Source: Eledone cirrhosa
Lineage: Eukaryota
DNA length: 64,000 bases
Assembly (NCBI GenBank): GCA_964016885.1
Contig: OZ024742.1
Span: 333,374,001 to 333,438,000, forward strand
Direction of reading: 5' to 3'
Shown: positions 4,101-31,918 of the stretch, piece by piece
Layout: the number at the start of each line of letters is the position of its first letter
Numbering within the stretch: the stretch's first letter is position 1
The notes under the pieces: model-generated
The model's database searches: none
What the model saw: only the letters and a program-made list of their open reading frames with translations
What the model was told of the DNA's origin: nothing
Position numbers and translations under genes: made by a program

Positions 4101-5212
4101 AGGCAGGGGATTTCATCTTTTATCTGCTTCAGCAGGTAGAGCCCAACCAGATCCGTTACCTGTGCTGAGTTGCTGGAGCCCATCGTGATGTCAAAGTTAT
4201 TTGGCCAATCACTCCTGGTCCAAAGATCTCAATCGAAACGGATTAAGGTATTTCTTGCGGCGTGGATGATGCTCACCTCCTCTCGGGTTAGGTCCGTATT
4301 GGACATCGCTAAAAATAGGGCCTTATTTATGTACTATGGGTGAGATTGAGGAGTAGTAGCTTGCAATATCCAGTTGTATAAAGCTGGTCTTACTTTTCTG
4401 ATGTAGTATCTTAAACCATTCTATTACTTCTCCCGTCCATGACCATTGCTGTAATTTAGTTTTCTTCTGAAGCTTGGGCAAAATCCTATCTAGTATTCTT
4501 TTACTGACGATCCCTAGGTCAGATCTGGAGGGGGCTATTAGTCTGAGAGGGAGGTCGAACTCAAAGTTTGGCTTGTGATCTTTAAGGGTAATCCGCGGCT
4601 CCCTTAGTTGGTGTGGGGCCGTGCTGTCCTCTATGCCGAGTCTAGATATAATCCTGTAAGCTGTGGCATTGATCTCATCCAGCGTTTTTTTGTGGCACTT
4701 CCTCAGTTCCCTGAGAATTAGCTTATTGTACAGTTCAGTGTTCATGTTGTAGAGGTTGTTGGTTTTGTCAGCATGGACAAGTATTCCAGTTGTCTTTTTA
4801 CGTACTGTAATCCGGTTCTCAGGTGCCTGAGGTACTCCTGACTTCTGCTTGGGTTTCCGTAGGATATTTGAGGTTGGATATGATGTTAATCATCTCGTTT
4901 TCAAACTCCTCCATTAGTCTGTTGTTGGGGGGATTCCTCCTTGATCGAAAAAGGTACTCTATGTTTTGTGTGTTGGTAATTTTTTGCGTTCCTCTTTCGA
5001 AATGGTACGCCTTCCATCTCATCCTACGGACGAGGGAGTCCGTACTCTTGATGAGATCACTGGTGTATTCTCGTTTGTCAGATAGGGGGATGTTCTTCAG
5101 TGACGCTAAATTTGCCAGTTTATCCATAGTGACTTAAGTCCGCTACTGTTTGAAGCGCTCAACCCGTGTGGGAGCTAGATAGATTTTGAGTATATGTTGG
5201 TTGTATGCCAAC
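1141..5212 (-). mobile_element. Penelope-like element family 1 (Naiad-type), disrupted, long 3' UTR
   Basis: Fragmented RT plus GIY-YIG ORF. The 3' UTR near 1145-1310 matches the pLTR fragment at 14170-14330. A 30-bp pLTR remnant at 5183-5212 matches solo ends at 29204 and 40294. Confidence 0.9.
2491..5127 (-). pseudogene. PLE RT-GIY-YIG polyprotein, frameshifted
   Basis: Spread over several frames: SLKNIP...LVRRMRWKAYHF, FIQLDIASYYSSI, MGSSNSAQVTDLVG, GGIYRDD, WYNPPYS, CNCR..CPL..CL, YIGATSTSFKDRWYNH, CKICLNE, TCRH. Confidence 0.9.
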
Positions 5213-6217
5213 AGAGTGTCTCGGACAGGATCTCCAGCCTGTCCGGAAGTAAAGAAATATTCGATAACTACGGGGAATATTACAACGCAGATGTAAATAA
5301 GGCGGCACGTGACCAACATATAACATATAGTCCGAAATGCCTGGATGGGGATGCCCCAACGGACACCCACACCTGCGTTGCCCGGGGGGGGGGGGGCGAA
5401 CCCTAACAATACAGGCAGAGCAGAAACAAATAGGCACCATGTGGCCGACACTACCACAGAAACCCAATATGAGTAGCAGTCTCAGGGGTAACGCTAACCA
5501 CCCCAGGACCGACGACCCCAACCGCAGGACACGTGAGGAGGACCCCCTCACGATAGATCTCCCAGCGCGGGCAACGACCACCCCACAGATTCGGGCCCTG
5601 AAGATAACAACAAGCATAGCGCCCAAAGGGGAAGCAGCAGTGCGGGAACCACCAGCAACCCAACAAATCTCCAACAAATCACGACGCCCCCGACCCACTC
5701 ATATAGGAGGAGACACAGAAAAAATCACGTGGTACAACCCACCCTACTCACCCGCCCTAAAGAACAGCTTGGCCCTATCATTCATTGGAGCACTTGATAA
5801 ATGCTTCCCGAGGGACCATATATACCATAGGGTCTTCAACAGACACACTGTGAAGCTCTCGTATTCCACCACGAGACATCTGGCCCAACACATAGCTAGC
5901 ATCAACAGGAGTAGGCTTAAACACCACACGCAACAAGAAGATGGCAATACAAGCACTCAGCAGAACCATGTGAAAGGAGGGAAGCGGGGACCCACAGACT
6001 ACCCAAGAAACCCAAACAAACCCGGGGACCTCCACTGTGCCTGGGAACACCTAACGGGAACCCCTATCTAGGCCCGCAGAGGTCGACCACCCTCTGCAAC
6101 TGCAGAAAGCCCGTATTATGCCCCCTTGGTAATGAATGCCTTAAGAAGAACCTAGTATACGGTTGTAGGGTTAAACCTCCAATTCCGAACACCTTTACAT
6201 AGGAGCCACATCAACGA
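5213..6217 (+). mobile_element. Inverted partial copy of family-1 ORF 3' half
   Basis: Reverse complement of ~2795-3828, roughly 90% similar by eye with indels. Confidence 0.9.
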
Positions 6218-6712
6218 ACTCATTATTAATACATATGAATTCAATATACAAACTTTAACTTCACATTATTTTTCTCAAATCCTTCTACACATAAACCTTA
6301 ACATTTTTCTCTTCGCTAATTTTGAAATTGCCACAATACATACATTTCTTCTTTTGACGTTAGAATATTCACCCACAATTATTATTTTTTATCTCTCTAT
6401 CTTCATACATAATTTCCCTTCGTTAATTTTCAAATTCCTTTAATTTATACATTATCTTCCAACGGTTCCCAACCTCTCTATATTAAAACAACATATCTTG
6501 TTCTCAGTTATAAAAACTATCTCTTTCTCTCTATCACCCATCTCTCCCTTTCCACCTTCACTCTCATCTCCTCCCCCTTTTTTTCATCCTTTCCACCCCC
6601 CCCCCCCCTCCCTAAATAAAATATGTTTTCCTCGCACATATCCTCCCTTCGTTAATTTTCAAAATTTTTAATTTATACAGTATCTTCCAACGGTTTTCAA
6701 CCCCTCTATATA
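6218..6712 (+). mobile_element. Family-2 PLE 3' UTR segment fused to family-1 sequence
   Basis: Reverse complement of ~21222-21750 with a small deletion. Confidence 0.85.
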
Positions 6713-7059
6713 AAATATATATATATATTTTATCTGGTCATTCTATAGACATGTTTTATGATATATAGCTCTGATTATTTAATTTATTAAACTTTCATTG
6801 AGCCACAAAGTGACCCGTTGCAAAACACGTATATGTATGTATGTATATATATATATGTAAACCTTTATATATATATATATATATATATATATATATATAT
6901 ATATATATATATATATATATACATATATACATATATACATATATATACATATAAATATATATAAATTCATATATATATATATATATATATATACATTCAC
7001 ACACACACACTCACACACACACGCAGATGCACACATACACACACACATAGATATATCTA

Positions 7060-30750: not shown

Positions 30751-31049
30751 GCACATTCGAGGTAAACTGTGGAGTAAGCCGGGTTGAAAAGATAGCCCGG
30801 TGAAAGGGCCGTGTCACGATGGATCAAAGCAAAAGAAATGCATTTCCCTGTGGTCTTATTGGGCAGTTCTTGGAACAGCCTCACCAGACGCTAAAGTGCA
30901 TGCACTCTGGGTGACTGAGTGGACCCAAACTTTAATTTATTGTATCTTCGTATCGAAGTCATCGCCATCATCGTCAAATATAAAATTACTTGTATGCATC
31001 TATGCGTGTGTTTTTATATATATATATATATATATATATATATATATAT

Positions 31050-31215
31050 ATAACGAAAGAAATGTGGCAAGGAACCAGATGGAGCATAACGCACCAACAT
31101 ACTCAATACTTAAGGTAGTCGAGTGGGTAATAGGAACAAGTATGATCCCGGCGGCTAAGCCCATGCCGTTTCGAAACGGCTTGAGCTCTGCCGTCGGGAT
31201 CATATGTGTTCCTAT
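31050..31215 (-). mobile_element. Family F solo pLTR-like end with fold-back inversion (also 57988-58193, 63150-63361)
   Basis: Three similar copies, each TA-flanked and ending in a palindrome. Confidence 0.7.
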
Positions 31216-31294
31216 ATATCTATCTATATCTCTCTCCCCCTCTCTCTCTCTCTCTATATATATATATATATATATATATATATATATATATATA

Positions 31295-31918
31295 TATAAA
31301 TGAAAATTAGAGTTAATGACTCCAATTGAAACCCTGTAATTATTAAGCTCCAAGTATAAAATACTGAGCCGTATAATAATAATATATATGCAGTAAGAAA
31401 CACAGTAAACCGTGTGTCTAATTTTACAAGGGTTGAAAAAGCACATTTGTTTGAAATGTTTAACCAAGAAGCAGACAGAATGATAAAATAAAATGATATT
31501 ATATTATACAAATCGCCTCAATAACAATTACATCTCTCGGACAGATTATCCCTAATCTGTTTCGCCCTGAGTGTGTTTGCAACAGATAATCCATGGGCAT
31601 CATCAGCGAGAGAATCTGATTAAATGCGACAAACACTATGTACCAACGTTCACATAGAAAGATGAATTTATCACCTCGTGCGCCGCGAGTCAAACGTGGT
31701 AAGCGTGTATTGGATATAAACAACAGTCCAACACACGCAACTTAATAAGCTCAACTTGTGAGGGAGCAGAAATATAAATGAAAATTAGAGTTAATGACTC
31801 CAATTGAAACCCTGTAATTATTAAGCTCCAAGTATAAAATACTGAGCCGTATAATAATAATATATATGCAGTAAGAAACACAGTAAACCGTGTGTCTAAT
31901 TTTACAAGGGTTGAAAAA
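31295..31918 (-). mobile_element. Non-coding 478-nt HHR unit with ~145-bp terminal redundancy (retrozyme-like)
   Basis: 31295-31440 recurs at 31772-31918. Central HHR, TA flanks and no credible ORF. Confidence 0.85.
31533..31613 (-). ncRNA. Canonical type I hammerhead ribozyme
   Basis: UCUCUCG-CUGAUGA-UGCCC..GGGC-GAAA-CAGAUUA GGGA UAAUCUG-UC-CGAGAGA. All three stems pair and the triplet is GUC. Confidence 0.92.

Follow-up and report, generated by a model that had tools for sequence, protein, structure and literature searches.

The window considered here is a stretch of 64,000 nucleotides of contig OZ024742.1 from Eledone cirrhosa (assembly GCA_964016885.1, positions 333,374,001 to 333,438,000 of the forward strand). 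Self-comparison of this 64-kb window reveals families of Penelope-like retrotransposons (PLEs), labeled A to C and F, together with non-coding units D and E; by their protein motifs and architecture, these elements are assigned to the Hydra clade. The leader upstream of the open reading frame (ORF) carries a short bulged hairpin in two copies, hp1 and hp2, and from this covarying pair the two alternative 3' ends of inserted copies can be predicted. The features on which the account rests, including pseudo-long terminal repeats (pLTRs), reverse transcriptase (RT) ORFs, and hammerhead ribozyme cores, are as follows.

2490–5127, minus strand: ORF of family A (RT and C-terminal GIY-YIG endonuclease), broken by stop/frameshift; ATG at 5127
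5157–5175, minus: hp2 of family A, upstream of the ATG at 5127
5213–6220, inverted relative to A: 5'-truncated copy of family A, a repeat of 2790–3828
20809–21066, minus: 3' pLTR copy of B, with hammerhead core 20950–20997 and hp1 20868–20892; its end, at (TA)n, falls 6 nt short of the hp2 position
22031–24433, minus: intact ORF of family B, about 800 amino acids, with RWT, DKT, YRDDG, CxCX5C, GIY-YIG, and CxxC-E..N-CxH
24488–24505, minus: family B hp2, with read ends accumulating at 24510 and 24512
24571–24595, minus: hp1 of family B, an ACTC/GAGT variant
24653–24700, minus: hammerhead core matching the pattern CTGAnGA..GAAAC, within the 5' pLTR of B
24941–25452, minus: 3' pLTR copy of C, with hp1 25011–25040; stops before the hp2 position, at (TA)n
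27940–27957, minus: hp2 of family C, whose basal position is a U.C mismatch; the ORF is frameshifted, with its ATG at 27914
28036–28065, minus: hp1 of family C, with a weak upper stem; hammerhead core 28137–28238
28474–28695, plus: inverted copy of the C pLTR, which stops 8 nt before hp1 at (TA)n and so contains neither hairpin
29205–29294, minus: family A solo 3' end that includes hp1 (29255–29294) and stops at (TA)n, 7 nt short of the hp2 position
31294–31924, minus: unit D, a non-coding, retrozyme-like partial tandem ending at 31294, with hp1 31825–31847, hp2 31749–31767, hammerhead core 31559–31606, and copied hp1 31347–31369
40203–40293, plus: the other solo 3' end of family A, which has a degenerate hp1 (40203–40242) and is followed by (TA)n
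56135–57066, minus: unit E, a non-coding partial tandem with covariant hp2 56725–56746; no clear hp1 and no hammerhead core were found in it

The pLTRs of family B (24514–24767 and 20811–21066) are 98% identical, and the internal pLTR of family C spans 27966–28489. In the ORF of family B, motif reading and alignment place RT first and the C-terminal GIY-YIG last. The N-terminal RWK-type motif reads RWT in B and RWK in C and A; DKG is changed to DKT (SDKT in B, ADKT in C and in A); and B contains the CxCX5C linker as CNC-RIKNK-C, CxxC..E as CNLC..E, and N..CxH as N..CLH. The family A ORF has a long low-complexity insertion that separates the RT thumb from the WYNPP motif (2939–4228, 5331–6071). 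Hammerhead cores are predicted in the pLTRs by pattern match (24653–24700, 28137–28238, 31559–31606), and the insertion target is (TA)n. The marks of the Hydra clade given in the available text of Craig et al. (2021, PMC8557442) are RT followed by C-terminal GIY-YIG, RWK, DKT, CxCX5C, no CCHH, a hammerhead, and (TA)n targets; no CCHH was seen on motif inspection of the window ORFs. Five ORF pieces gave no significant Pfam match, so the domains were read from motifs, and Rfam did not detect the hammerheads of the window. The sole named protein match is from Argonauta, which pointed to a probable cephalopod host.

The first-pass annotation of this DNA had called the elements Naiad, with which they share (TA)n targets, pLTRs, and inverted 5' copies; Naiad, however, has an N-terminal GIY-YIG endonuclease, a CxC domain, and DKA and lacks a canonical hammerhead, and the label was rejected for Hydra on the C-terminal endonuclease, DKT, and hammerhead cores. 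Neptune/Nematis was rejected because the linker is CxCX5C rather than CX2-5CxxC and no CCHH is seen in the endonuclease. Position 5157, previously taken as a junction of pLTR and element body, is preceded by a 38-nt spacer and an inverted copy (2790–3828/5213–6220), with no direct pLTR.

A twin hairpin in the leader

The five hairpin strings reported by the first-pass annotation, among them the covariant form at 56725–56746, which is hp2 of unit E, are all present at the positions given there, on the minus (element-sense) strand. In the window the pattern CTCC-N4-9-GTTGAGC has four matches against 0.04 expected, and at least four were obtained in 0 of 100 shuffles. Relatives from other hosts were collected by alignment search as 88 loci (numbered with the prefix L), 10 of them from genome bins and 78 from metagenomes, the latter taken out of the best 80 of 380 candidates; all are evidently animal host DNA. 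The Hydra retroelements of L079–L088 are on contigs classed as bacterial genome bins, for which animal host contamination is the likeliest cause. Viral contigs yielded neither Hydra relatives nor the twin-hairpin pattern.

Across the clade the hairpin follows the consensus ATATA-nnn-GCTC-Y..R-TH-GAGC-ACT. Its base is a 4-bp GCUC/GAGC stem, above which a bulge of 2 nt, U first, lies on the 3' side; the upper stem-loop is variable, ACU follows at the 3' edge, and a conserved AUAU/UAUA tract directly precedes the hairpin. The leader is ordered hammerhead, hp1, hp2, ATG, so that both hairpin copies lie between hammerhead and start codon. In 27 of 33 leaders the interval from the end of the hammerhead core to hp1 is 41–66 nt, the starts of hp1 and hp2 are 54–90 nt apart (107 in family C), and hp2 starts 34–72 nt before the ATG. 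The hairpin occurs in 48 of the 52 families with a full leader, 40 of which have two copies. Among 67 leaders of at least 140 nt the pattern detector found two hairpins in 48, one in 15, and none in four; it missed family C because of the mismatch at the stem base. Per kb, the motif numbers 9.7 in leaders, compared with 0.6 for the antisense strand and 0.03 for ORFs. The AU-rich spacer that had been proposed to precede the hairpin is conserved: TAT or ATA is found at −9 to −3 in 63 of 88 family-level hairpins, compared with 22% of background windows, and the upstream tract is 87% A+T.

Rfam gave no match to the hairpin at gathering score, and 0 of 49 weak matches overlap hp2 of B, C, or D. In the published Hydra consensi in the part of the supplement to PMC8557442 that was available, the hairpin judged by eye is canonical in three of six, variant in two, and absent from one, which ends before hp1. 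Four hairpin octamers have six matches in the available Naiad section of the same consensus file, none in the Hydra arrangement, although line wraps or variants may hide matches there.

Pairing within the hairpin was assessed with a pairing-blind test, since the detector requires pairing and its pair counts are biased. Anchors that carry no pairing requirement gave an unambiguous reading at 77 of 105 sites. Watson-Crick pairs occupy the base position in 72 of 77 (60.5 when shuffled), the first upper position in 73 of 77 (43 shuffled), the next in 47 of 73 (24 shuffled), and the following one in 34 of 48 (14 shuffled); slid controls are at chance level. In a 68-row alignment of hand-chosen detected hairpins, a set that leans toward structure, 98.5% of cells pair and double changes number 33 compared with 7.9 when shuffled.

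Insertion ends beside the hairpins

As the first-pass annotation had noted, terminal copies in the window stop just upstream of the hairpin of the matching internal copy, where (TA)n begins. It put the hairpin 5–9 nt past the copy end, and the short gap is borne out with a range of 4–10 nt by longest exact match: 7 at both solo ends of A (near 29205 and 40293), 6 for B (20809), 8 for C (24941), 4 for D (31294), and 10 (56135) and 4 (30177) for unit E. With one mismatch allowed, the gap is 3 for C and for the 40293 copy of A, and the exact end base is blurred because of TA microhomology. The claim that the hairpin is never copied at the 3' end holds for hp2 and fails for hp1, which is copied at 20868–20892, 25011–25040, and 31347–31369. 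Any end that lies at hp2 includes a copied hp1, hp2 itself being left uncopied.

The same relation was found for the window and its relatives together, where 3' ends were tabulated against reference sequences with TA runs masked. Of 35 terminus rows three were dropped before counting: L082:8465 and window 29472 are trimming artefacts whose true ends lie 6–7 nt before a hairpin, so dropping them is conservative, and window 3828 is an inverted-copy junction. Among the 32 remaining termini within leader regions, 25, from 18 families, are found 2–12 nt before a hairpin (hp1 for 11, hp2 for 14; mode 3–4 nt), whereas chance predicts 9.8% from all positions and 24.6% from TAT/ATA positions (p=3e-10); the 0–12 nt interval was picked after the data had been seen. 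The termini flanked by TA number 19, of which 18 are 2–12 nt before a hairpin, and seven ends without TA flanks are likewise adjacent to hairpins.

Reads and contigs of four runs mapped on family B place the ends at the same sites. Across 24510–24512 depth falls 188-, 29-, 235-, and 316-fold in the four runs; read counts from restriction-site-associated DNA sequencing (RAD-seq) reflect stacks from few loci rather than numbers of insertions. Among the best-supported of more than 350 loose-end rows are (TA)n ends at 24510 and 24512, at distances of 4 and 6 nt from hp2 on its upstream side, together with another (TA)n set beside hp1 at 24595, 24603, and 24613; ends called at 24595 may belong to 24600, one mismatch having let the extension run too far. 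The two hp2 registers, 2 nt apart, end in UA and AU, and the fixed start distance originally proposed is replaced by a narrow range with two registers. The mapping of 3' ends relative to the motif, which the first-pass annotation had set as its check, bears the motif out in the family B reads and across other Hydra families. A boundary for 3' ends is thus also set by hp1 itself, and the hp1–hp2 stretch behaves like the optional tail of PLEs.

Further solo ends with an hp1 in the window are listed here.

13686–13772, minus: solo fold-back end, with hp1 13748–13772, 87 nt before (TA)n; hammerhead core 13843–13885
40608–40691, minus: solo end with long-loop hp1 40646–40691, 84 nt before (TA)n
57982–58061, minus: solo end of family F, with hp1 58038–58061; sister copies have hp1 at 31101–31124 and 63196–63219
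58637–58736, minus: solo end with hp1 58711–58736, 100 nt before (TA)n

An hp1 lies 80–100 nt upstream of 6 of 59 TA runs on the minus strand and of 0 of 59 on the plus strand, compared with 0.75% for random positions. Several further observations concern the elements and their surroundings. Short fold-back ends of non-coding families, each with hp1 and a (TA)n end, occur at 13772–14083, 58067–58190, 31130–31215, and 63151–63292. Another repeated short end has no hairpin and runs from a GAAA hammerhead-like piece into (TA)n (890–940, 12892–12924, 36726–36789, 40698–40820); these possibly represent an additional family with ends of hp1 type. Between 2490 and 58736 there is an orientation bias, the minus strand bearing almost every Hydra copy and solo end. 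Family B reads across 24627–24744 in the pLTR carry many G>A and C>T variants and represent several subfamilies, and the depth of short pLTR ends is one to two orders of magnitude above that of ORF-linked copies. Tail-to-tail insertion of two Hydra copies of different families into one TA run is seen in L024 near 2936, in L082, and at the 3' end of L088. Unrelated to these elements, an ORF of 1151 amino acids on the plus strand (47779–51234), with endonuclease and RT motifs and an ORF1-like frame upstream (46656–47783), represents a non-LTR element, presumably Tx1/L1-like. Other dispersed repeats are 32295–32842/62579–63129, 29415–30003/41182–41470/54086–54708, and 51562–52859.

Candidate roles of the hairpin

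The favored reading, to which a probability of about 0.6 is given, is that the hairpin acts as an RNA docking signal for RT and that the spacer between hp1 and hp2 constitutes the Penelope "tail". The RT-endonuclease protein would bind the hairpin in the sense RNA and nick the (TA)n target, the nicked 3' end would pair over 2–5 nt with the AU tract, and cDNA would start inside the RNA, some 3–6 nt upstream of the hairpin, so that the bound hairpin would be left uncopied. Starting at hp2 would copy hp1 and the spacer, giving the optional tail, and starting at hp1 would give a tail-less end. Non-coding units D and E retain the hairpin, and units of this kind would presumably be mobilized in trans. 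More speculatively, the template would be a hammerhead-cut circle or a tandem read-through, in which hairpins again lie downstream of the copied end; an hp2-ended copy, which retains hp1, could template one further round from a linear transcript, after which a tandem or circle would be needed. The earlier requirement for two tandem pLTRs was too strong, because an hp2-ended copy still holds hp1; it stands only in part, in this need for a tandem or circle after one more round. Docking of RT on the hairpin, as the first-pass annotation had it, may be inferred by analogy, Poseidon being the one system that backs it (Frangieh et al., 2024, PMC11167929, available text); that interpretation as a whole is partly supported.

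Several points weigh against docking by RT. Seven of the 32 termini lie elsewhere (gaps of 27–98 nt, with one past hp2), the interval in which ends were counted was chosen with the data in view, and RAD-seq read counts reflect few loci. Local folding of the 12 window hairpins gives a high stem probability (0.93–1.0) for three, a moderate one (0.4–0.7) for four, and a low one for five, and both family C hairpins are in the low class. The core CUC/GAG is nearly invariant, so covariation cannot show its pairing, and in the upper stem G-U and A-C pairs number 15 and 8, with no clear preference for RNA over DNA. In addition, some full-length copies start at or inside the hairpin, which docking alone does not explain; ORF-bearing copies with such 5' ends, often after (TA)n, are L002:467–505, L009:965, L014:981, L035, L064:675, L088:3886, L048, L011, and L031.

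These 5' ends bear on an account in which the hairpin is an RNA-processing signal, with a nuclease cutting tandem transcripts 5' of the hairpin and RT priming at the new RNA 3' end. Both monomer ends are near a hairpin in L014, L035, L064, L048, L011, and L088, and the published Hydra-1_Ajap consensus begins 2 nt before hp1, both in favor of such cutting; yet 5' ends spread from about 15 nt inside the hairpin to 21 nt upstream of it while 3' ends are tight, priming at hp2 has two registers, a hammerhead is already present about 40–65 nt upstream (27 of 33 leaders), and initiation in Poseidon is independent of the RNA 3' end (PMC11167929, available text), so that this account is unlikely. Similarly improbable is a signal acting as DNA, in which GIY-YIG would recognize the motif as an extruded single strand or cruciform, nick the adjoining TA tract, and resolve an integration intermediate. 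In the portions available, Craig et al. (PMC8557442) ascribe tails to endonuclease resolution and PMC11167929 cites a requirement for the D. virilis tail in endonuclease recognition; the TA tract beside the hairpin resembles the target, and in L002 a (TA)n run lies between tail and hp2. The one-sided 2-nt bulge and the covarying upper stem, however, do not make a symmetric DNA palindrome, the target sites are plain (TA)n without hairpins, and the excess of G-U over A-C pairs also speaks, weakly, for RNA.

It is less probable still that the hairpins serve transcription, translation, or packaging and that ends cluster there only because a TA-rich tract is easily primed. The near-constant distance from hp2 to the ATG and the A+T content of the tract would suit such a passive role, but only 24.6% of the TAT/ATA positions in leader regions fall within the end windows, compared with 78% of ends, the ends without TA flanks are also at hairpins, and hairpins are kept in non-coding units. 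Chance or assembly artefact, to which the shortness of the motif and the breaking of assemblies at TA runs might point, is refuted by the excess of matches in the window, by raw reads that give the same ends, and by retention of the motif in 48 of 52 families.

Docking by RT could be extended to the 5' ends on a tentative proposal: that the twin bulged hairpin is an RT-binding, template-defining element on a hammerhead-made circular RNA, with synthesis starting 5' of the hairpin and either stalling at the same hairpin after one lap, giving monomers, or running on, giving pLTRs and tandems. In telomerase RNAs, which are related to PLEs, a template boundary element defines the template, a role comparable to that which the Hydra hairpin would have on a circle. 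A circle has been proposed as template for more-than-unit cDNA (PMC4209133, available text), and the hairpin at the 5' end matches that at the 3' end in five of six monomers, as would fit one lap; the set was hand-picked, the match is not significant, and the 3' hairpins of L064, L048, and L035 were assigned from the distance to the hammerhead or hp1. The matches include two members of one family with different pairs, hp1/hp1 in L014 and hp2/hp2 in L011.

Relation to known elements and significance

The Hydra clade, its hammerheads, TA targeting, and tails, and internal initiation are already known. The window families are further members of the clade described by Craig et al. (2021, PMC8557442), with the same protein marks, hammerhead, and (TA)n; in its available text the words "hairpin" and "stem-loop" are absent, and ends and tail are not tied to a motif. 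The available text of Frangieh et al. (2024, PMC11167929) describes, for Poseidon PAc from Anolis, internal RT initiation at two sites, one at either boundary of the tail, and a requirement for RNA 3' of these sites. PAc thus shares with Hydra two alternative 3' ends with an optional tail between them and AT-rich targets, with downstream sequence required in PAc. It belongs to another clade, however, its start sites are in an AC-rich stem-loop of the ORF and lack homology to the target, and no conserved repeated determinant has been defined for it, whereas the sites of the window elements are in the 5' untranslated region, just before a twin hairpin, with TA microhomology and a 54–107 nt tail. 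The supplementary figures of PMC11167929 may show a Poseidon counterpart of the hairpin.

Non-LTR retrozymes and the circular-template model of PLEs (PMC4209133; PMC7229834; 10.64898/2026.07.22.740005) likewise involve tandem units with hammerheads, and the passages available name no cis-element that sets the RT start. Non-LTR retrozymes are non-coding tandem units that carry a type I hammerhead and are expressed as circular RNA; unit D, a partial tandem with a pattern-matched hammerhead core, looks like a candidate. The literature search, which covered sources other than subscription papers and Repbase/Dfam notes, found no description of a Hydra hairpin determinant, and the hairpin is real and, as a cis-element of a known clade, probably undescribed.

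PLEs are the sister group of telomerase RT, and how they choose the start of cDNA and why the tail is optional have been open questions; so far, one PLE alone has been studied in vitro. The hairpin makes the question of start site and tail testable, since a clade-wide covarying motif that predicts both 3' ends within a few bases provides a signal to mutate, move, or duplicate. It also gives an annotation rule for the ends of Hydra elements and their non-autonomous derivatives, and points to a minimal cis-tag that could serve in RNA-templated insertion at TA repeats. If the circular-template proposal is true, one 20-nt motif would account for 3' ends, tail, pLTR, and retrozyme-like mobilization in trans.

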